19,631 bases of DNA from a virus (Duplodnaviria; Heunggongvirae; Uroviricota; Caudoviricetes). The notes under the pieces are model-generated. The model did no database searches, had not been told where the DNA came from, and worked only from the letters and a program-made list of their open reading frames with translations. Numbering within the stretch: the stretch's first letter is position 1; each line of letters starts with the position of its first letter. This document shows positions 7,670 to 19,631 of this stretch, in pieces. The stretch lies in IMG/VR virus record IMGVR_UViG_2541047837_000004; one strand, written 5' to 3'. Made by a program: the position numbers and the translations under genes.

Positions 7670-7884
7670 TATTCACCTCTCGCAGCCTTGCGCTTATCTT
7701 CTTTAATCTTGAAATAAAGGTTTGTCAGGTACGTCAGCAGGCCAAATACCAGACTACCCAGCACACCGATTGCAGCCCACTGTGACGGAGTTACTCTATC
7801 GAGCAACTGTAAAAACCAGTAGCCAGCACTGCCTGCGGAGGTGCCGTAGGCAATGCCTGTTGAAATTTTGTCCATGGATTTCAT
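7669..7884 (-). CDS. pinholin (S21-like) with dual-start motif
   Basis: [26 protein letters not shown]...: Met-Lys-Ser-Met dual start (ATG at 7884 and 7875) with GGAGGTGA Shine-Dalgarno; two transmembrane segments; 71/68 aa. Stop overlaps the endolysin ATG. Confidence 0.85.
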
Positions 7885-9169: not shown

Positions 9170-9698
9170 ACAGCGAATCAGATCAAATAAAACGCACATT
9201 TGTTAACATTTACACAAAGTCTGCGTGGGATATTCTGAAAGAATATCCATAATGTGGAGAGAATCTATTGAAGTGCATGGTGCCGGGTGCCTCCCGGTGA
9301 ACAAAATGTTCGTGATACCTGTCGGCGACAGAAAAGGTTAATGGTATCACCCCACCGCACAGGGGGATTCACCATGCAGGAGTTTTCTTAGCAAACTCAC
9401 TGCGCGCCCGGCAACTCCCAACCACATAAAATGCGGAGTTTGTGGCATTTATGCATATAACTAGCAGGAATTATCTTAAAAAACTGATGTCGATCCGGAT
9501 TAAAAAGAAGCAGGTCATCATCAGATGACTGGAAAAAAGGAAAACAAAAAATACTCATCATACAGTTTTGATTGCAGGGATGAGCCTGCTATGCACAATA
9601 TGCAGAATATAAGCAAGATAAAAATATGCAGGCATATTATTTCGGATTTTGTTATTAACACAACCTTTTTAATAATCATTTGGCATACAATAAACCAG

Positions 9699-10154: not shown

Positions 10155-10616
10155 TCAAGCCATTTTCTCAGCGAATGATTCTCGCATGGGAATGTATAGC
10201 GCATACTCAGCAACGGCCAACCAATTAGCAATTCGCTTTTCGCATGTGCTAAAACACCACTCTGGGTGTGCATCATTTAGCAATTCAGCCATTTTGCGTT
10301 TGGTCATCCCCCGCCCCTCATACCGTTGCCGAAGGACGCTAATCAATCCTGGATGCTCTGCCAGCACCTCACTTATGACCCGATCAATACATAACGCCTC
10401 TGCATCAGTACAATGCGCCAGCCAGCTCTTTTGCTTACCGTTAATCATATCCCGCAAAAAAGCCTCAAGTTCAGACTTGTTCAGACCTGCTTTTTTCATC
10501 CTCCGGAGCGCCTCGTTAATTGCCGTTTTTGTCAGCTTTTTAGAGGCCAACAACTGGTTGAACATATTCCCCGTCTTTCCGGTAAACGGCTTGGACTGCA
10601 TCATCATGCGCATCAA
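10155..10616 (-). CDS. hypothetical protein, candidate late-gene regulator (Q-like by position only)
   Basis: Last ORF of the leftward early operon, directly upstream of the tandem terminators and the lysis region. Four Cys (C-x6-C, C-x4-C). Start is uncertain: Met codons at 10616, 10601 and 10565, the last with a purine-rich Shine-Dalgarno. Overlaps ydaT by 26-77 nt. Confidence 0.45.
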   Translation of the reverse strand: MMRMMMQSKPFTGKTGNMFNQLLASKKLTKTAINEALRRMKKAGLNKSELEAFLRDMINGKQKSWLAHCTDAEALCIDRVISEVLAEHPGLISVLRQRYEGRGMTKRKMAELLNDAHPEWCFSTCEKRIANWLAVAEYALYIPMRESFAEKMA

Positions 10617-10947
10617 TTGCCGTACTTAACGCTTCCTGCGCCGCCAGTAATGCACGGCGTTCCAGGGTATCGAAGATGCAGAGTCGGTGACGCAGCTCGC
10701 GCGGAAGGATTGCCAGAATTGCTGGGATCAGCTTCTGAATTTTTTCTCTTTGCGTTTTCGTTTCACCTTTCAACCAACGGTGATAGATATTCTGCTGATT
10801 GTTCCAGTCCTTGCCTGGAACCAGGGGCAATTCGCCGCCCCCCTGGCGCAGATATTCTTCAGTAATTGCATTGGCTACCCATGCCTGCCCTTTTTCGGCT
10901 GCTAGGGCAAACAACACTGATTCGATGTGCTCATGCTTGATTTTCAT
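10540..10947 (-). CDS. ydaT: Rac prophage protein YdaT
   Basis: MKIKHEHIESVLFALAAEKGQAWVANAITEEYLRQ... matches recalled Rac YdaT; immediately downstream of ydaS. Confidence 0.8.
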   Translation of the reverse strand: MKIKHEHIESVLFALAAEKGQAWVANAITEEYLRQGGGELPLVPGKDWNNQQNIYHRWLKGETKTQREKIQKLIPAILAILPRELRHRLCIFDTLERRALLAAQEALSTAIDAHDDAVQAVYRKDGEYVQPVVGL

Positions 10948-10969
10948 GAATCATTTGCCTCTTGATGTT

Positions 10970-11266
10970 TCAGGTATGATCAAATGAGGATTTGTTACTG
11001 TCATTTAGTTGCTTCACTGACATATTCTGCGAACAACATGCCGAACGTCGTAAATATGACCAGTCAATATCAGGACGAAGTTCTTCGCACAGAACCTCAC
11101 CTCTTGTTGCACGTTCAATTGCTGGACATCTCTCGGCAGGCAATTGACGTACCCCTTTGATCCATTGATTTACGCTTGGAGGTGATACACCTAAAAGCCT
11201 AGCCATTGCTGATTGCCCACCGACAACAGCACAAGCTTGCTTGAATGAATAGTTCTCATTTTTCAT
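10970..11266 (-). CDS. ydaS: Cro-like HTH regulator YdaS
   Basis: 98 aa, MKNENYSFKQACAVVGGQSAMARLLGVSPPSVNQWIKG (HTH); diverges from racR; TGGAG Shine-Dalgarno. Confidence 0.85.
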   Translation of the reverse strand: MKNENYSFKQACAVVGGQSAMARLLGVSPPSVNQWIKGVRQLPAERCPAIERATRGEVLCEELRPDIDWSYLRRSACCSQNMSVKQLNDSNKSSFDHT

Positions 11267-11292
11267 CGAATGAACTCCAAAAACACACAGAA

Positions 11293-11322
11293 ATATTAGG
11301 CGACGCCTAACGCAATTGTCAA
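11293..11322 (-). promoter_or_regulatory. PR-like promoter with palindromic operator (drives ydaS-ydaT)
   Basis: Minus strand reads TTGACA (11322-11317), 18-nt spacer, TAATAT (11298-11293). Perfect 15-bp palindrome TTAGGCGaCGCCTAA at 11296-11310 overlaps the spacer and -10. Confidence 0.4.
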
Positions 11323-11389
11323 TAGGCTGTGCCTAATGCGGTAAGGGTAGGGATTGCCTAATGTAATGCGCATAGGAGAATATTAAGCA

Positions 11390-11866
11390 ATGCTTAGTGG
11401 TAAAGACTTAGGCCGAGCGATAGAGCAGGCCATTAACAAAAAAATCGCATCGGGATCCGTCAAATCAAAGGCGGAGGTCGCACGCCACTTCAAAGTCCAA
11501 CCACCATCAATTTATGACTGGATTAAGAAAGGCTCTATAAGTAAAGATAAACTTCCAGAATTATGGCGTTTCTTTTCTGATGTTGTTGGTCCAGAGCATT
11601 GGGGGCTTAACGAATACCCCATACCAACCCCCACCAATTCAGATACAAAAAGTGAACTTTTAGATATAAACAACCTTTATCAAGCAGCCTCTGATGAAAT
11701 AAGAGCGATTGTAGCTTTCCTGTTATCTGGAAATGCTACAGAACCAGATTGGGTTGACCACGATGTTCGCGCCTACATAGCAGCGATGGAAATGAAAGTG
11801 GGTAAGTATCTGAAAGCTCTAGAATCTGAACGGAAAAGCCAGAACATCACAAAAACTGGAACTTAA
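11390..11866 (+). CDS. racR: Rac prophage repressor RacR
   Basis: 158 aa, MLSGKDLGRAIEQAINKKIASGSVKSKAEVARHFKVQPPSIYDWIKKG (HTH); AGGAG Shine-Dalgarno 10 nt upstream; divergent from ydaS. Confidence 0.9.
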   Translation: MLSGKDLGRAIEQAINKKIASGSVKSKAEVARHFKVQPPSIYDWIKKGSISKDKLPELWRFFSDVVGPEHWGLNEYPIPTPTNSDTKSELLDINNLYQAASDEIRAIVAFLLSGNATEPDWVDHDVRAYIAAMEMKVGKYLKALESERKSQNITKTGT

Positions 11867-11976
11867 ACTTATATGGTCTGACGGAAAACTCCTGGATTCC
11901 GTTATTTAACCCCCCCATCACTTTCTGCTGTCGCCATCACCTATTAGGTTACGCTCAAAACATTAGGCATAGCCTA

Positions 11977-12005
11977 TTGACAATCAATTAGGCATTACCT
12001 ATAGT
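11977..12005 (+). promoter_or_regulatory. PL-like promoter with operator-like motif (drives ydaG onward)
   Basis: TTGACA (11977-11982), 17-nt spacer containing ATTAGGCAT, TATAGT (12000-12005). It sits in a 24-bp element that is the inverted repeat, with one mismatch, of 11314-11337. Confidence 0.4.
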
Positions 12006-12174
12006 TCCAGCATACCACCCACCCCGCCCCACAGAACGCCGGGCAATACTTCGAGTTACCAGGCAGTGGTAAGGGGTTAAGTAGCCAGCCCGAGGCGTAT
12101 GAACATGACGGCGGGATTCAAATTTTGCAGTGCAGCAGTTAGTTCCGCCACCCGGCGTTAAGGGGAGAGATAAG

Positions 12175-12309
12175 ATGGTGCATTACGAAGTAGTTCAGTA
12201 TTTGATGGATTGTTGCGGTATCACTTACAACCAGGCTGTGCAGGCTTTACGCAGCAACGACTGGGATCTCTGGCAGGCAGAAGTCGCTATACGTAGCAAC
12301 AAGATGTGA
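12175..12309 (+). CDS. ydaG: small Rac protein YdaG (44 aa)
   Basis: ORF MVHYEVVQYLMDCCGITYNQAVQALRSNDWDLWQAEVAIRSNKM with GGGGAGAG Shine-Dalgarno; too short for the ORF track; matches recalled YdaG. Confidence 0.55.
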   Translation: MVHYEVVQYLMDCCGITYNQAVQALRSNDWDLWQAEVAIRSNKM

Positions 12310-12319
12310 GATTCGCAAA

Positions 12320-12475
12320 ATGCAAAAAATCGACCTCGGCAACAACGAATCCCTGGTGTGCGGCGTGTTCCCCAACCAGGATGGAACGTTCACTGCCATG
12401 ACGTATACCAAAAGCAAAACATTTAAAACCGAAACTGGTGCGCGCCGATGGTTGGAGAAGCACACAGTAAGCTAA
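12320..12475 (+). CDS. ydaF: small Rac protein YdaF (51 aa)
   Basis: ORF MQKIDLGNNESLVCGVFPNQDGTFTAMTYTKSKTFKTETGARRWLEKHTVS; stop is convergent with the sieB stop. Confidence 0.55.
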   Translation: MQKIDLGNNESLVCGVFPNQDGTFTAMTYTKSKTFKTETGARRWLEKHTVS

Positions 12476-12960
12476 CGATTAAAACGTCTACTCCTGCTGT
12501 TCCAGAATAACTTCATAAAATGGGAGTATTTTTCGGTGACGAGATAATAAGAACAGTTTGCGCTATCACTCTGATGTTGAATGATGCCCTTCCGTTCTAA
12601 TTTTTTCATAACCGGGTTACGGCAAGGAGAAGTGATAATAAGATTTCCTGTTTTAAGGAAATCTTTAAATACAGCGATTTCTTTCTCAGATAAACGAAGC
12701 AATACTCGTTGCTCTGGTAGTAATGAATAATGCTTTTGAATATGTGCTCGCAATCTTGAGAAGGAAATGGCGACCACGAAAGAAAAGGCAAAAACGATAA
12801 TCTGAAAGAGCCAAGGTATTTCAGTATAAGCATTGAATGCGACAGTAAACTCTTTCGGTATCAGCCAGAGAGTGAGACCAAAAATGATAATCGTATACAT
12901 AAGTCTTTCGAGTGGCTCGTTAGCAAAAAGTTTCAACAATGGAGTAAATACATCCAACAT
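12472..12960 (-). CDS. sieB: superinfection exclusion protein SieB
   Basis: 162 aa from MLDVFTPLLKLFANEPLERLMYTIIIFGLTLWLIPKEF, with an N-terminal membrane segment. The ORF track extends it upstream to 13083, but the recalled SieB starts at this internal Met. Confidence 0.85.
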   Translation of the reverse strand: MLDVFTPLLKLFANEPLERLMYTIIIFGLTLWLIPKEFTVAFNAYTEIPWLFQIIVFAFSFVVAISFSRLRAHIQKHYSLLPEQRVLLRLSEKEIAVFKDFLKTGNLIITSPCRNPVMKKLERKGIIQHQSDSANCSYYLVTEKYSHFMKLFWNSRSRRFNR

Positions 12961-13401
12961 ATCAATAACTCTCAACTGTAAGGGTATTGAAATGTTAACA
13001 CAAGCTCTCGCTGTAGGGGTATAGCCGAGACCACCGAAGCCCGGAGGTGGTGAAATAAAACCGGGCACAACACGAAGGCGCATTTCCGATATCCATAAAG
13101 AGTCGGTCTTGTCTGTTAAATTTAAATGGTGGGAGTGCGCCTCCGGTTGTAAATAACGACATTGCTGTGTGTAGTCCTGGCGGCATCAGTTTTTTTCTTG
13201 AAGTTCGGCTGATGTCCGCCCTTTTTAAAGTGAATTTTGTGATGCGGTGAATGCGGCTAAGCGCACGTGGCACAGTTAAAAGTCATGTTAGTCCTTATTG
13301 GTTTGGGTGGGAAAGCCGACTGTAATTGTTAACTGGTTGCAGTCACCTGGAGGCACCAGACACCGCATCAACAAAGTTCATTTGTAAAAATGGAGATAAT
13401 T

Positions 13402-13623
13402 ATGATTGCACATCACTTCGGAACTGATGAAATACCACGTCAGTGTGTGACTCCTGGCGATTATGTTCTTCATGAAGGCCGGACATATATTGCCTCGGCA
13501 AACAATATTAAAAAGCGAAAACTATATATTCGTAACCTGACCACAAAAACATGCATTACTGACCGCATGATTAAAGTCTTCCTCGGTCGTGATGGTTTAC
13601 CTGTAAAGGCGGAGTCATGGTGA
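13402..13623 (+). CDS. kilR: cell division inhibitor KilR
   Basis: 73 aa [40 protein letters not shown]...; GGAG Shine-Dalgarno 5 nt upstream of ATG 13402. Confidence 0.85.
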
Positions 13624-13793
13624 TGACTAAGAAAATAAAATGTGCTTACCACCTTTGCAAAAAAGACGTTGAAGAAAGCAAAGCTATTGAAAGAATGCTT
13701 CACTTCATGCACGGGATTTTATCAAAAGACGAACCGAGAAAATATTGCAGTGAAGCTTGTGCCGAAAAAGACCAGATGGCACATGAACTTTAA
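13623..13793 (+). CDS. ydaE: small Cys-rich Rac protein YdaE (56 aa)
   Basis: [59 protein letters not shown]; its ATG overlaps the kilR stop. Confidence 0.6.
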   Translation: MTKKIKCAYHLCKKDVEESKAIERMLHFMHGILSKDEPRKYCSEACAEKDQMAHEL

Positions 13794-13867
13794 TTAATTG
13801 ACTATTCGAAACTGAATTTATGCCAGAAATGGCAGGTATTCGCTCAACCTTAATTAAGGAGAAAAAC

Positions 13868-14143
13868 ATGATTACCAATTATGAAGCCACTGTTGTAACT
13901 ACCGATGACATTGTTCACGAGGTGAATCTGGAAGGAAAGCGCATTGGCTACGTAATTAAAACAGAAAATAAAGAAACCCCATTCACTGTGGTTGATATCG
14001 ATGGTCCATCAGGCAACGTAAAAACACTTGATGAAGGTGTCAAAAAAATGTGCCTGGTGCATATCGGAAAGAATCTGCCCGCAGAAAAAAAAGCCGAATT
14101 TCTGGCAACTCTAATTGCAATGAAATTAAAAGGTGAAATCTGA
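13868..14143 (+). CDS. racC: Rac prophage protein RacC
   Basis: 91 aa from MITNYEATVVTTDDIVHEVNLEGKR; AGGAG Shine-Dalgarno upstream. Confidence 0.8.
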   Translation: MITNYEATVVTTDDIVHEVNLEGKRIGYVIKTENKETPFTVVDIDGPSGNVKTLDEGVKKMCLVHIGKNLPAEKKAEFLATLIAMKLKGEI

Positions 14144-14148
14144 AAGAA

Positions 14149-14173
14149 ATAGCCTGCGTATGGCGCAGGCTAT
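14149..14173. other. GC-rich hairpin between racC and recE
   Basis: Perfect 10-bp inverted repeat ATAGCCTGCG-tatgg-CGCAGGCTAT beginning 6 nt after the racC stop. Confidence 0.4.
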
Positions 14174-14244
14174 GAACAGTGTGTATCCGGCAAGATCATT
14201 CACTGAACAAAACGAATTTTAATCTGAGTTGAGGTTAAAAAACA

Positions 14245-16845
14245 ATGAGCACAAAACCACTCTTCCTGTTACGGAAAGCGAAAAAATCATCCGGTGAACC
14301 TGACGTCGTCCTGTGGGCAAGCAACGATTTTGAATCGACCTGTGCCACTCTGGACTACCTGATCGTTAAGTCAGGTAAAAAACTGAGCAGCTATTTTAAA
14401 GCTGTTGCCACGAATTTTCCTGTCGTTAATGACCTGCCCGCTGAAGGTGAGATCGATTTTACCTGAAGTGAACGCTATCAACTCAGCAAAGACTCCATGA
14501 CATGGGAACTAAAACCGGGAGCAGCACCAGACAACGCTCACTATCAAGGCAATACCAACGTCAACGGCGAAGACATGACTGAGATTGAGGAGAATATGCT
14601 ACTCCCAATTTCTGGCCAGGAACTGCCCATTCGTTGGCTTGCTCAACACGGCAGCGAAAAACCGGTAACGCACGTTTCACGCGACGGACTCCAGGCATTA
14701 CACATTGCTCGGGCTGAAGAACTACCGGCTGTTACTGCCCTGGCTGTTTCCCACAAAACCAGCCTGCTCGACCCGCTGGAAATTCGCGAACTCCACAAAC
14801 TGGTTCGTGACACTGACAAAGTTTTCCCTAATCCTGGTAATTCAAACCTGGGACTGATAACTGCTTTTTTCGAAGCATACCTGAACGCTGACTACACCGA
14901 TCGAGGACTGCTGACAAAAGAGTGGATGAAGGGTAATCGTGTTTCACACATCACTCGCACGGCTTCCGGTGCTAATGCTGGCGGCGGAAACCTCACCGAT
15001 CGCGGCGAAGGTTTCGTACACGATCTGACGTCACTGGCGCGCGACGTAGCCACTGGCGTACTGGCCCGTTCAATGGATCTGGACATCTATAACCTTCATC
15101 CGGCACACGCTAAACGCATTGAGGAAATTATCGCTGAAAATAAACCGCCCTTTTCTGTTTTCCGCGACAAATTCATCACCATGCCTGGCGGGCTGGATTA
15201 TTCCCGCGCCATCGTGGTTGCGTCCGTAAAAGAAGCACCAATTGGGATCGAGGTCATCCCCGCGCACGTCACTGAATATCTGAACAAAGTACTGACTGAA
15301 ACCGATCATGCCAACCCTGATCCGGAAATCGTGGATATTGCCTGCGGTCGCTCCTCTGCCCCGATGCCGCAGCGAGTAACAGAAGAAGGAAAACAGGATG
15401 ATGAAGAAAAACCGCAACCATCTGGAACAACGGCAGTTGAACAGGGAGAGGCTGAAACAATGGAACCGGACGCAACTGAACATCATCAGGACACGCAGCC
15501 GCTGGATGCTCAGTCACAGGTAAATTCTGTTGATGCGAAATATCAGGAACTGCGGGCAGAACTCCATGAAGCCCGGAAAAACATTCCATCAAAAAATCCT
15601 GTCGATGCCGATAAATTGCTTGCTGCATCACGTGGTGAATTTGTTGACGGAATTAGCGACCCGAACGATCCGAAATGGGTAAAGGGGATCCAGACTCGCG
15701 ATTGTGTGTACCAGAACCAGCCAGAAACGGAAAAAACCAGCCCAGATATGAATCAACCTGAGCCAGTAGTGCAACAGGAACCGGAAATAGCCTGCAATGC
15801 CTGCGGCCAGACTGGCGGGGATAACTGCCCTGACTGTGGTGCGGTGATGGGCGACGCAACATACCAGGAAACATTCGATGAAGAGAGTCAGGTTGAAGCT
15901 AAGGAAAATGATCCGGAGGAAATGGAAGGCGCTGAACATCCGCACAATGAGAATGCTGGCAGCGATCCGCATCGCGATTGCAGTGATGAAACTGGCGAAG
16001 TCGCAGATCCCGTAATCGTAGAAGACATAGAGCCAGGTATTTATTACGGAATTTCGAATGAGAATTACCACGCGGGTCCCGGTATCAGTAAGTCTCAGCT
16101 CGATGACATTGCTGATACTCCGGCACTATATTTGTGGCGTAAAAATGCCCCCGTGGACACCACAAAGACAAAAACGCTCGATTTAGGAACTGCTTTCCAC
16201 TGCCGGGTACTTGAACCGGAAGAATTCAGTAACCGCTTTATCGTAGCACCTGAATTTAACCGCCGTACAAACGCCGGAAAAGAAGAAGAGAAAGCGTTTC
16301 TGATGGAATGCGCAAGCACAGGAAAAACGGTTATCACTGCGGAAGAAGGCCGGAAAATTGAACTCATGTATCAAAGCGTTATGGCTTTGCCGCTGGGGCA
16401 ATGGCTTGTTGAAAGCGCCGGACACGCTGAATCATCAATTTACTGGGAAGATCCTGAAACAGGAATTTTGTGTCGGTGCCGTCCGGACAAAATTATCCCT
16501 GAATTTCACTGGATCATGGACGTGAAAACTACGGCGGATATTCAACGATTCAAAACCGCTTATTACGACTACCGCTATCACGTTCAGGATGCATTCTACA
16601 GTGACGGTTATGAAGCACAGTTTGGAGTGCAGCCAACTTTCGTTTTTCTGGTTGCCAGCACAACTATTGAATGCGGACGTTATCCGGTTGAAATTTTCAT
16701 GATGGGCGAAGAAGCAAAACTGGCAGGTCAACAGGAATATCACCGCAATCTGCGAACCCTGTCTGACTGCCTGAATACCGATGAATGGCCAGCTATTAAG
16801 ACATTATCACTGCCCCGCTGGGCTAAGGAATATGCAAATGACTAA
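14245..16845 (+). pseudogene. recE: exodeoxyribonuclease VIII RecE, interrupted by in-frame TGA at 14464-14466 (codon 74)
   Basis: ORFs 14245-14466 and 14497-16845 are in the same frame with a single stop between them. The span is 867 codons, matching the 866-aa RecE length recalled for E. coli K-12. Confidence 0.8.
14497..16845 (+). CDS. recE: RecE C-terminal ORF (782 aa) retaining the exonuclease domain
   Basis: Longest intact ORF downstream of the nonsense codon. The C-terminal region ([22 protein letters not shown] ... DVKTT ...) is the nuclease domain. Stop overlaps the recT ATG. Confidence 0.6.
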
Positions 16846-17647
16846 GCAACCACCAATCGCAAAAGCCGATCTGCAAAAAACTCAGGGAAACCGTGCACCA
16901 GCAGCAGTTAAAAATAGCGACGTGATTAGTTTTATTAACCAGCCATCAATGAAAGAGCAACTGGCAGCAGCTCTTCCACGCCATATGACGGCTGAACGTA
17001 TGATCCGTATCGCCACCACAGAAATTCGTAAAGTTCCGGCGTTAGGAAACTGTGACACTATGAGTTTTGTCAGTGCGATCGTACAGTGTTCACAGCTCGG
17101 ACTTGAGCCAGGTAGCGCCCTCGGTCATGCATATTTACTGCCTTTTGGTAATAAAAACGAAAAGAGCGGTAAAAAGAACGTTCAGCTAATCATTGGCTAT
17201 CGCGGCATGATTGATCTGGCTCGCCGTTCTGGTCAAATCGCCAGCCTGTCAGCCCGTGTTGTCCGTGAAGGTGACGAGTTTAGCTTCGAATTTGGCCTTG
17301 ATGAAAAGTTAATACACCGCCCGGGAGAAAACGAAGATGCCCCGGTTACCCACGTCTATGCTGTCGCAAGACTGAAAGACGGAGGTACTCAGTTTGAAGT
17401 TATGACGCGCAAACAGATTGAGCTGGTGCGCAGCCTGAGTAAAGCTGGTAATAACGGGCCGTGGGTAACTCACTGGGAAGAAATGGCAAAGAAAACGGCT
17501 ATTCGTCGCCTGTTCAAATATCTGCCCGTATCAATTGAGATCCAGCGTGCAGTATCAATGGATGAAAAGGAACCACTGACAATCGATCCTGCAGATTCCT
17601 CTGTATTAACCGGGGAATACAGTGTAATCGATAATTCAGAGGAATAA
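16838..17647 (+). CDS. recT: recombinase RecT (single-strand annealing protein)
   Basis: 269 aa from [18 protein letters not shown]; matches recalled RecT. The ORF track start at 16781 is an upstream in-frame ATG inside recE. Confidence 0.95.
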
Positions 17648-17703
17648 TTCAGCCTGGCGGTGTAATGCACCGCCAACTTGAAATATTTTTTATGAGAAAA
17701 ATT

Positions 17704-17898
17704 ATGAGATATGACAATGTTAAACCATGTCCATTTTGTGGTTGTCCATCAGTAACGGTGAAAGCCATTTCAGGATATTACCGAGCGAAGTGTAACGGAT
17801 GCGAATCCCGAACCGGTTATGGTGGAAGTGAAAAAGAAGCACTCGAAAGATGGAATAAACGAACCACTGGAAATAATAATGGAGGTGTTCATGTATAA
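17704..17898 (+). CDS. ralR: restriction alleviation protein RalR (Lar)
   Basis: 64 aa MRYDNVKPCPFCGCPSVTVKAISGYYRAKCNGCESRTGYGGSEKEALERWNKR, with four-Cys zinc-ribbon-like spacing. Confidence 0.85.
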   Translation: MRYDNVKPCPFCGCPSVTVKAISGYYRAKCNGCESRTGYGGSEKEALERWNKRTTGNNNGGVHV

Positions 17899-18100
17899 AA
17901 TTACCGCCACTATTGAAAAGGAAGGTGGCACTCCTACTAACTGGACAAGATATTCAAAATCTAAACTAACGAAATCAGAATGCGAAAAAATGCTCTCAGG
18001 TAAAAAAGAAGCAGGCGTTTCCAGAGAGCAGAAAGTAAAACTGATAAATTTTAATTGCGAGAAACTTCAGTCCTCGAGAATTGCATTGTATTCAAATTAA
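17891..18100 (+). CDS. ydaC: Rac prophage protein YdaC
   Basis: 69 aa from MYKITATIEKEGGTPTNWTRYSK; GGAGG Shine-Dalgarno; overlaps the ralR stop by 8 nt. Confidence 0.8.
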   Translation: MYKITATIEKEGGTPTNWTRYSKSKLTKSECEKMLSGKKEAGVSREQKVKLINFNCEKLQSSRIALYSN

Positions 18101-18178
18101 AACTTCATAGCTGATTATTAATAATCAACATCGGGCGTCAATTTCAGTCTAACATTGGCGCCTGCCAGAGGTGATGCG

Positions 18179-18394
18179 ATGGCACAAGTAATCTTTAATG
18201 AAGAGTGGATGGTTGAATACGGCCTGATGCTTCGCACTGGTCTGGGGGCCAGACAAATTGAAGCATACCGCCAGAACTGTTGGGTGGAGGGCTTCCACTT
18301 CAAACGAGTATCTCCTTTAGGTAAGCCAGACAGCAAACGAGGGATTATCTGGTACAACTATCCAAAGATAAATCAGTTTATCAAAGACTCATGA
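18179..18394 (+). CDS. xisR: excisionase XisR (YdaQ)
   Basis: 71 aa from [35 protein letters not shown]; GAGGTGA Shine-Dalgarno; stop lies 1 nt before the intR ATG. Confidence 0.85.
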
Positions 18395-18395
18395 T

Positions 18396-19631
18396 ATGTC
18401 TAAATTACCAACAGGTGTCGAGATTAGAGGTAGATACATTCGCATCTGGTTCATGTTTCGAGGAAAACGATGTCGGGAAACATTAAAAGGCTGGGAGATT
18501 ACAAACAGTAATATTAAAAAGGCCGGAAATTTAAGAGCGCTGATAGTTCATGAAATAAACTCCGGTGAATTTGAGTATTTAAGACGTTTTCCCCAGTCCA
18601 GCACTGGGGCAAAAATGGTGACAACGAGAGTCATAAAAACGTTCGGAGAGCTTTGTGATATCTGGACAAAAATTAAAGAGACAGAGTTAACAACAAACAC
18701 AATGAAGAAAACGAAATCACAATTAAAAACACTCAGAATAATAATTTGTGAAAGTACCCCGATATCACATATTCGTTATAGCGATATCTTAAACTACCGG
18801 AATGAACTGCTGCATGGAGAAACGCTTTACCTGGATAATCCAAGATCCAACAAAAAAGGAAGAACCGTGCGCACAGTTGATAACTATATCGCCCTGCTCT
18901 GTTCGCTGTTGCGTTTTGCGTATCAGTCGGGATTTATATCAACCAAACCATTTGAAGGAGTAAAAAAATTACAGCGAAACAGAATAAAGCCTGATCCGTT
19001 ATCTAAAACAGAATTCAATGCATTAATGGAAAGTGAAAAAGGACAGAGCCAGAACTTGTGGAAATTTGCCGTTTACTCAGGACTTCGTCACGGGGAACTG
19101 GCAGCTCTGGCGTGGGAGGATGTGGATCTCGAAAAGGGAATAGTGAATGTCAGAAGAAACCTGACGATACTTGATATGTTCGGTCCCCCAAAAACAAATG
19201 CCGGGATCCGAACAGTAACACTACTGCAGCCTGCTCTTGAAGCACTGAAGGAGCAATACAAACTGACCGGGCATCATCGCAAAAGCGAAATCACCTTTTA
19301 TCATCGGGAGTACGGCAGAACCGAAAAGCAAAAACTGCATTTTGTTTTCATGCCCAGGGTGTGTAACGGAAAACAAAAACCTTATTACTCGGTAAGCAGT
19401 TTGGGGGCAAGGTGGAATGCAGCAGTAAAACGTGCTGGTATTCGCCGCCGTAATCCGTACCATACGCGGCATACTTTTGCCTGCTGGCTGTTGACGGCAG
19501 GAGCGAACCCGGCATTTATAGCCAGCCAAATGGGGCATGAAACTGCGCAGATGGTGTATGAAATTTACGGTATGTGGATTGATGACATGAACGACGAACA
19601 GATAGCCATGTTGAATGCGCGGTTATCGTAG
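18396..19631 (+). CDS. intR: tyrosine integrase IntR
   Basis: 411 aa; C-terminal catalytic signature (HTRHTFACWLL ... VYEIYG); matches recalled Rac IntR. Ends at the window edge, so no att site is included. Confidence 0.95.
   Translation: MSKLPTGVEIRGRYIRIWFMFRGKRCRETLKGWEITNSNIKKAGNLRALIVHEINSGEFEYLRRFPQSSTGAKMVTTRVIKTFGELCDIWTKIKETELTTNTMKKTKSQLKTLRIIICESTPISHIRYSDILNYRNELLHGETLYLDNPRSNKKGRTVRTVDNYIALLCSLLRFAYQSGFISTKPFEGVKKLQRNRIKPDPLSKTEFNALMESEKGQSQNLWKFAVYSGLRHGELAALAWEDVDLEKGIVNVRRNLTILDMFGPPKTNAGIRTVTLLQPALEALKEQYKLTGHHRKSEITFYHREYGRTEKQKLHFVFMPRVCNGKQKPYYSVSSLGARWNAAVKRAGIRRRNPYHTRHTFACWLLTAGANPAFIASQMGHETAQMVYEIYGMWIDDMNDEQIAMLNARLS

Follow-up and report, generated by a model that had tools for sequence, protein, structure and literature searches.

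Paired operator/promoter modules flanking racR in the Rac prophage of Escherichia coli: a probable RacR-repressed early promoter downstream of the repressor gene

The window analysed here, a 19,631-nucleotide (nt) stretch of DNA held as IMG/VR virus record IMGVR_UViG_2541047837_000004, is a Rac prophage of E. coli. We describe its repressor gene racR and the two sites, one on either side of this gene, through which the early operons of the prophage would be controlled. RecET recombineering, the KilR division inhibitor, the YdaS/YdaT toxins and the RalRA toxin-antitoxin pair all derive from Rac, whose repressor gene racR is essential in K-12. Positions 10900-12500 of the window are 100% identical to strain LR-64-2, and at least 80% of this region is present in 552 complete genomes. 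Compared with K-12 MG1655, five substitutions are found between positions 10575 and 14131; these leave the operators and promoter hexamers unaffected, and the results published for K-12 are therefore valid for the sequences of the window. The gene identities in a previous reading of the sequence (the original prediction) agree with the annotation: racR, ydaS, ydaT and, to the right, ydaG/ydaF/sieB/kilR. The genes around racR are:

10540-10947, minus strand: ydaT (open reading frame list, annotation)
10970-11266, minus strand: ydaS, encoding a Cro-like helix-turn-helix (HTH) regulator and leading the leftward operon (open reading frame list, annotation, Pfam)
11390-11866, plus strand: racR, encoding a 158-residue repressor with an N-terminal HTH (open reading frame list, annotation, Pfam)
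12175-12309, plus strand: ydaG, first gene of the rightward operon (annotation)
12320-12475, plus strand: ydaF (annotation; Pfam DUF1391)

After ydaF the rightward operon continues on the plus strand with kilR, ydaE, racC, recE and beyond, and sieB lies on the minus strand. YdaS matches the Pfam families YdaS_toxin (2.6e-31) and P22_Cro (3.4e-9). For RacR the Pfam scan gave a weak HTH match and no match to the autocleavage domain Peptidase_S24, so induction cannot be RecA-stimulated autocleavage of the repressor; its DNA-binding region, residues 1-73, is invariant in the alignment of homologues. The genes racR and ydaS are divergent, and the 123 bp gap between them holds four sites of the form TAGGC-N3-GCCTA. 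The locus thus has divergent genes for a repressor and a Cro-like protein with several palindromic operators between them.

For K-12, the site to the left of racR is an established, published promoter/operator. Krishnamurthi et al. 2017 reported that RacR binds the 123-bp intergenic region, noted the GCCTAA/TTAGGC repeats, and found that YdaS expression is not detectable in the lysogen (PMC5700373). In 2022 the Mruk laboratory mapped a single ydaS start by primer extension, with the hexamers TTGACA and TAATAT, and showed that a -10 mutation abolishes activity (PMC9638921). Mutagenesis of both the -10 and the -35 of this promoter, PydaST, has been published (PMC9638921, PMC11879457); its activity is about 25,000 Miller units and it is repressed about 16-fold by YdaS (PMC11879457). 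DNase I footprinting of RacR revealed an ATTAGGC half-site and operators of the form T/ATAGGC-n3-GCCTAT/A, of which those in the PydaST region (O1) were protected first, and one published operator overlaps the racR start codon (PMC9638921). The same laboratory described in 2023 four inverted repeats in the racR-ydaS intergenic region and found, by size-exclusion chromatography, that DNA-free RacR forms octamers in solution (PMC11014345). For RacR at the left cluster the published evidence consists of EMSA, footprints and reporter assays. The RacR papers place all sites in the intergenic region and at the racR start, and explain the octamer by four dimers, each on one of four neighbouring repeats. 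In the window, the elements of the left-hand site are:

11293-11322, minus strand: PydaST, with -35 TTGACA at 11317-11322, an 18-nt spacer and -10 TAATAT at 11293-11298 (scan, 10/12; published mapping)
11297-11309, unstranded: operator O1, TAGGCGACGCCTA, the palindrome core, over the PydaST spacer and -10 (motif search)
11323-11335, unstranded: operator O2, TAGGCTGTGCCTA, adjoining the PydaST -35 (motif search, module alignment)
11348-11360, unstranded: third left operator, TAGGGATTGCCTA, one mismatch, over the racR promoters (motif search)
11384-11396, unstranded: fourth left operator, TAAGCAATGCTTA, two mismatches, with the racR ATG in its N3 (motif search)

According to the original prediction, racR is bracketed by a 24-bp inverted repeat. 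This holds, with the second copy at 11961-11984 and a single mismatch (C/T, in the central N3), except that the first copy, ATTGTCAATAGGCTGTGCCTAATG, lies at 11315-11338 and not at 11314-11337. The pair extends to 35 nt at 83% identity in a repeat search, and it is the sole 24-nt inverted repeat with at most one mismatch whose arms lie within 2 kb of each other in the whole window; such a repeat appeared in none of 200 shuffles (analytic expectation 1e-5). The perfect 15-bp palindrome that had been noticed over the leftward promoter, TTAGGCGACGCCTAA, is present at 11296-11310. Likewise, the TTAGGC/GCCTAA motifs cluster as had been claimed: seven of the nine copies in the 19.6 kb fall within 11290-12010 (binomial P = 3e-9). 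The operator unit is TAGGC-N3-GCCTA, and its three perfect copies, starting at 11297, 11323 and 11964, are all in the two sites (0.02 expected in the window). Copies with one mismatch start at 11348 and 11989, and one with two mismatches starts at 11384, over the racR ATG; a further one-mismatch copy at 7847 is compatible with chance (0.6 expected). A consensus promoter scan of 10900-12500 returned as its two best matches exactly the two outward promoters that had been named, TTGACA with TAATAT on the left (10/12) and TTGACA with TATAGT on the right (11/12). The elements of the repeat and of the right-hand site are:

11315-11338, unstranded: left arm of the 24-nt inverted repeat, comprising O2 and -35 (sequence, repeat search)
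11961-11984, unstranded: right arm of the 24-nt inverted repeat, comprising OL2 and -35 (sequence, repeat search)
11964-11976, unstranded: operator OL2, TAGGCATAGCCTA, perfect, adjoining the rightward -35 (motif search, module alignment)
11977-12005, plus strand: predicted PL-like promoter, with -35 TTGACA at 11977-11982, a 17-nt spacer and -10 TATAGT at 12000-12005 (scan, 11/12)
11989-12001, unstranded: operator OL1, TAGGCATTACCTA, one mismatch, over the spacer and overlapping the -10 (motif search, module alignment)

When the reverse complement of the left site is aligned with the right site, the two prove to be copies of one module of 38-39 nt. Its order is an operator, TTGACA without any gap, 5-6 nt, and another operator that overlaps the -10 with its 3' half. 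The left module thus reads TAGGCACAGCCTA-TTGACA-ATTGCG-TTAGGCGTCGCC with TAATAT as its -10, and the right module reads TAGGCATAGCCTA-TTGACA-ATCAA-TTAGGCATTACC with TATAGT; both share the GCCTA-TTGACA junction, and in both the promoter-proximal operator overlaps the -10. The published intergenic operators and the right-hand ones have the same ATTAGGC half-site and the same inverted-repeat form, and measured against the footprinted motif (PMC9638921) the operator at 11964-11976 has no mismatch and that at 11989-12001 has one. The right operators lie 98 bp beyond racR; measured between centres, the distance from O2 to OL2 is 641 bp and from O1 to OL1 692 bp. Together these features strongly suggest that Rac has its early-left (PL-type) promoter at 11964-12005, a mirror image of PydaST which RacR would repress directly by way of two operators; to this reading we give a probability of about 0.85. 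From the sequence we infer RacR binding at 11964-12001, rightward promoter activity, and a transcription start near 12012.

The known effects of RacR on the rightward genes agree with such a promoter. On RacR depletion, ydaG, ydaF, ydaE and racC rose about 40-fold and ydaC, kilR and ralA more than 70-fold (PMC6765115), and lowering RacR raised xisR and intR about 100-fold (PMC11014345); altogether, ydaG, ydaF, kilR, ydaE, racC, recE, recT, ralR, xisR and intR go up 40- to 100-fold (PMC6765115, PMC11014345, bioRxiv 2026.09.06.749655). Recent work has left the control of kilR, recET and xisR/intR by RacR as an unexplained regulon effect. A RacR-controlled promoter at 11964-12005 (MG1655 1419626-1419667) would offer a direct mechanism both for this regulon and for the octamer, and it would be a target for the construction of strains with controlled recET or kilR expression.

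The right operators could instead be a mere anchor, at which RacR is held for long-range co-operation with the left cluster, with no promoter of their own and with the rightward genes driven from elsewhere. The octameric state of RacR in solution (PMC11014345) would suit this arrangement, as would the precedent of lambda, in which OL likewise serves OR by looping, and the right-hand site is one without a mapped start. It is nevertheless a very improbable explanation: the right-hand site contains an 11/12 sigma-70 match in the register of the proven PydaST; the -35 and -10 of the right-hand module are conserved among 44 variants across bacterial orders; downstream of 11977-12005 the plus strand has no promoter match as good, the best (10/12) lying deep inside the operon; and in a heteroimmune relative described below the cassette junction falls exactly at the predicted start. 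No plus-strand terminators beyond chance were found in a scan of 12000-19631.

We compared the right-hand module across loci of RacR relatives collected from reference genomes and viral contigs, 335 of which were scanned for a 32-position module with up to four mismatches allowed. The RacR-type class was defined by the recognition region SI[YH]DWI.KGSI[SA]K, locus L184 being included after inspection. It comprised 40 distinct repressors, from Escherichia, Mixta, Morganella, Proteus, Klebsiella, Achromobacter, Pigmentiphaga and viral contigs. At the level of sequence, an operator cluster overlapping an outward early promoter lies beyond the repressor in 38 of the 40, with 0-2 mismatches to the module and at a distance of 62 bp to 2.7 kb from the stop codon. 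Escherichia, Mixta, Morganella, Proteus, Achromobacter and Pigmentiphaga are among the lineages covered, with proteins 57-75% identical. The two exceptions are a Klebsiella locus, where 3 kb of downstream sequence holds no module, and a contig of which only 597 bp remain after the stop codon. Among 74 loci without the RacR-type recognition region, about 545 kb of scanned sequence contained no module at all. In about 65 of these 74 controls the repressor has an S24 C-terminal domain 61-87% identical to that of the Achromobacter RacR-type repressor, joined to a different N-terminus. The presence of the module in RacR-type loci and its absence from controls with a homologous S24 domain indicate that it follows the DNA-binding domain, and neither the remainder of the protein nor the phage backbone. 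One of the controls (L230) also has a twin layout of this kind, with GTTTAGT as its repeat.

The pattern of variation also bears on whether the palindromes act as DNA or as RNA. Among 44 downstream and 56 upstream distinct module variants there is almost no change in the half-sites, in the -35 or in the T-A-n-n-n-T of the -10, and the N3 spacers and the linker between -35 and operator vary freely, which fits contacts by a protein and by polymerase, not RNA hairpins. A terminator scan did pick up the palindromes on the minus strand, at 11976-11964 and 11311-11295, as stems of 5-7 bp followed by T-rich tails, and they could on this basis be hairpins terminating the racR transcript or an antisense sieB transcript. 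However, the stems are short, the number of such matches is the same as in shuffles, and among the more than 40 variants the half-sites stay fixed without compensatory change around a free N3 loop. Moreover, RacR footprints the same sequences at the left site (PMC9638921), and the sites co-vary with the DNA-binding domain of the repressor. We consider this explanation exceedingly improbable, and rejected the terminator reading on the shuffle-level counts and on the fixed half-sites with a free loop.

Two further elements near the right-hand site are less certain:

11879-11904, plus strand: weak hairpin followed by UUAUUUAA, a possible but uncertain racR terminator (RNA fold)
11945-11957, unstranded: degenerate operator-like element TAGGTTACGCTCA, three mismatches, 19 bp from OL2, doubtful (sequence)

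The fold of the 101 nt from 11860 to 11960 has z = -1.3 against shuffles, which is not significant. As a third right-hand operator the element at 11945-11957 is doubtful in view of its odd 19-bp spacing; its left half alone is conserved in Escherichia, where it has two mismatches in E. ruysiae, and it is absent elsewhere.

Several points weigh against a directly repressed rightward promoter. The 3 kb that follow the Klebsiella homologue (L008) contain no module, and in Escherichia OL1 carries one mismatch, ACCTA or TCCTA replacing GCCTA. The RacR literature, older Rac work (Conter 1996; the sbcA papers) not being covered, holds no binding, reporter or start-site data for the right site in Rac; nor does it describe, including Bindal et al. 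2017, a RacR site or promoter downstream of racR, a statement that does not extend to work before 2000 or to EcoCyc/RegulonDB. The derepression of the rightward genes on loss of RacR could in principle be indirect, for instance via YdaS or YdaT. Finally, a ydaS-like gene stands beside every RacR-type repressor examined, and since repressor and Cro-like gene always occur together, the comparative data are silent on which of the two proteins binds. As to L008 itself, which comes from Klebsiella sp. R390, it is the only full-length RacR-type locus with three left operators and no outward module, and it may be a truncated or rearranged prophage.

The mismatch in OL1, the defective state of Rac and other signs of mosaicism in the window would be compatible with the right module being a relic that is decaying in a cryptic prophage and has gone out of use in this genome. 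We regard this as most unlikely. The operators and hexamers are the same as in K-12 and are intact in hundreds of Rac copies, 129 loci of the collection carrying this exact 55-nt module, and the rightward genes, silent in the presence of RacR, are strongly induced in its absence.

Evidence that the right-hand site belongs with racR comes from the exchange of immunity cassettes. Compared with the window, the Rac-like prophage of E. coli ECONIH4 (L337) shows 93.7% identity to the left of 10953 and 99.7% identity to the right, starting at 12013; in place of 10954-12012 it has an unrelated repressor/Cro pair. The exchanged unit is:

10954-12012, unstranded: immunity cassette, comprising ydaS, the left operators, racR and the right operator/promoter (ECONIH4 comparison)

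In ECONIH4 the repressor, the Cro-like gene and both operator/promoter sets are thus exchanged as one cassette. The right junction, 12012/12013, lies seven bases past the -10, at the predicted start, and the left junction lies at the ydaS/ydaT boundary, adjoining the YdaT box. The incoming cassette has its own operator, ATGTACT..AGTACAT with 24-bp spacing, of which copies lie between its two regulators as well as directly upstream of the junction. A break near 12011-12020 is also found in other heteroimmune prophages, namely those of O104:H4 and O145:H28 and phages Evi and 640R1. The position of the junction at 12012/12013 indicates that the right promoter/operator is inherited with racR as an immunity determinant and that the leader behind it is not, as with OL/PL in lambda hybrids. 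Bordering the cassette on the left, a 30-nt patch at 10924-10953 shows 97% conservation in every heteroimmune relative that was examined; within it lies TTGATTTTCATGAATCAT (10934-10951), which is the published YdaT box over the ydaT start codon.

A different question is whether YdaS, the Cro-like protein, rather than RacR is the main protein at the right site. The repression of PydaST by YdaS mentioned above (PMC11879457), the regulation of PL933P of prophage CP-933P by both PaaR2 and YdaS (PMC8630535) and the constant company of ydaS-like genes and RacR-type repressors all point in this direction. Against it, the rightward genes are silent in the lysogen even though YdaS is undetectable there (PMC5700373), and the right operators are exactly the published RacR footprint motif. 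We think it very unlikely that YdaS takes the leading part. RacR and YdaS probably share sites as CI and Cro do, so that a role of YdaS would complement RacR repression and not be a true alternative to it; by analogy, YdaS is likely to act at the right site.

Direct repression of the rightward promoter by RacR leads to the following picture. The repressor gene is flanked by two copies of one regulatory module that would face outwards in opposite directions, and with a RacR dimer on each operator the -35, the spacer and the -10 would all be covered and RNA polymerase kept out. The left module would be the analogue of PR (PydaST), serving the Cro-like ydaS and the CII-like ydaT, and the right module the analogue of PL, serving ydaG-ydaF-kilR-ydaE-racC-recET and on to xisR-intR. 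The two weaker left operators (11348 and 11384), over the racR promoters and start, would provide autoregulation of racR. With a drop in RacR both strong promoters would fire together, which would explain the co-induction of the ydaST toxins, KilR, RecET, ralR and the excision genes xisR/intR. The lambda OR/OL-like arrangement that the original prediction had seen here is supported, on the left by published work and on the right by geometry, by conservation together with the RacR-type domain, by the cassette and by derepression. Thus, of the lambda-type OR/PR and OL/PL layout around racR the left half was known, and the right half is a well-supported new instance.

The likeness to lambda is extensive. 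In both, two early promoters face outwards from the repressor gene between them, and several copies of a single palindromic operator overlap each promoter; a Cro-like gene comes first on one side, with recombination, kil and excision genes on the other; and the entire unit is exchangeable as an immunity cassette. The biology is therefore standard lambdoid design and will not surprise specialists. There are also differences. The Rac operator is the 13-bp TAGGC-N3-GCCTA at 25-26 bp spacing, whereas lambda operators are 17-bp; Rac has four left sites and two clear right sites where lambda has three and three; RacR is without the S24 autocleavage domain and is reported to be an octamer without DNA; the two clusters are about 650-690 bp apart in Rac and 2.3 kb in lambda; and an N gene or nut site was not found in Rac (Rfam, 11850-12400 and the whole window).

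Another closely similar switch is that of prophage CP-933P of E. coli O157:H7, in which the hexamers of PL933P are identical to those of PR933P, three operators OL1-3 are present, and both PaaR2 and YdaS repress the promoter in reporter assays (Jurenas et al. 2021, PMC8630535). It shares with Rac the repressor with divergent ydaS-ydaT order, the octameric state of the repressor and a PL-type promoter beyond the repressor operon. Its operator is, however, of the GTTTAGTAA type, the repressor having a different DNA-binding specificity, and CP-933P has a toxin-antitoxin pair between repressor and PL. Repression of PL933P was shown by reporters, whereas the right site of Rac is known from its sequence.

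Whether the two clusters act as one is a separate matter. That the RacR octamer links the left and right clusters is a possibility we put at somewhat below even. In its fuller form, which is more tentative, the octamer would not be confined to the four adjacent left repeats but would bridge the left cluster and the right pair, closing a loop of about 650 bp around racR and making one switch of both early promoters and autoregulation. As a linked possibility, drawn from the comparative data, the DNA-binding domain and its twin modules would make up a portable immunity unit, and, separately, the leader, which thousands of heteroimmune E. coli prophages carry, could be a cis-acting RNA for elongation or Rho termination of the early-left operon. 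Among homologues the distance between clusters ranges from about 0.6 to more than 3 kb. In the context of such a portable unit, the RacR-type domain is joined to a non-cleavable oligomerisation domain in Enterobacterales and to an SOS-cleavable S24 domain in Burkholderiales.

Downstream of the predicted promoter lies a conserved leader:

12008-12174, plus strand: untranslated leader of the rightward operon, about 165 nt (conservation across heteroimmune prophages)

It begins at the predicted start and is 85-99% conserved behind unrelated repressors (DicA-like, cI-like and RacR), both in E. coli (more than 2,300 genome records) and in the phages Evi, Tritos, 640R1 and pPE4. Its 124 distinct variants have long invariant runs, and among its first 30 nt C is frequent (17) and G scarce (4). 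Rfam, searched over 11850-12400 at E values up to 10, gave no match in the leader or at the operators; blastn-short and nhmmer comparison with the HK022 early region revealed no similarity to HK022 put; and a second, putR-like copy of the leader is absent from the window. The single-sequence fold has z = -1.8. In RNAalifold predictions (8 sequences; 110 distinct variants) most pairs are invariant and five show double changes, and with almost all pairings invariant covariation speaks neither for nor against a structure. A Rho entry site and a cis-acting antiterminator are two hypotheses for its function. Upstream of ydfA in the Qin prophage of K-12, only the last 50 nt of the leader are present.

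In Rac, ydaG sits between the leader and ydaF; in O104:H4 and O145:H28 (as annotated in RefSeq) the leader runs directly into the DUF1391 gene. The 44-residue YdaG (12175-12306) has a match to the UBA-like Pfam family UBA_4 at E = 3e-5, above the curated cut-off.

Some other observations were made on the repressor family and on the window. In Achromobacter, Pigmentiphaga and related viral contigs a RacR DNA-binding domain (about 75% identity over 77 residues) is fused to a Peptidase_S24 domain of the LexA/CI type, the S24 matches in the Burkholderiales homologues ranging from 1e-13 to 4e-15. These fused loci (L010 3001-4098, L011 3001-3906 and L178-L190) also have TAGGC-N3-GCCTA operators. Several of them carry additional genes, spanning 0.4-2.7 kb, between repressor gene and outward promoter, where lambda has rexAB. 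A RacR 100% identical to that of E. coli is encoded on a 5.2-kb contig assigned to 'Candidatus Nanosynbacter' (L004, JARKOR010000130.1), which is most likely a mis-binned E. coli contig in a metagenome-assembled genome.

The match to MG1655 ends at 10575, inside ydaT, and YdaT has 135 residues here and 141 in K-12; the loss of the match left of this position indicates that this Rac copy is mosaic relative to K-12 on the replication-gene side. With gathering thresholds, the only Rfam matches in the whole window were STnc100 (9221-9407, minus strand) and the RalA antitoxin RNA (17897-18075, minus strand). Mapping of MG1655 coordinates places the annotated small RNA KilS, upstream of kilR, at 13129-13226 on the plus strand of the window.

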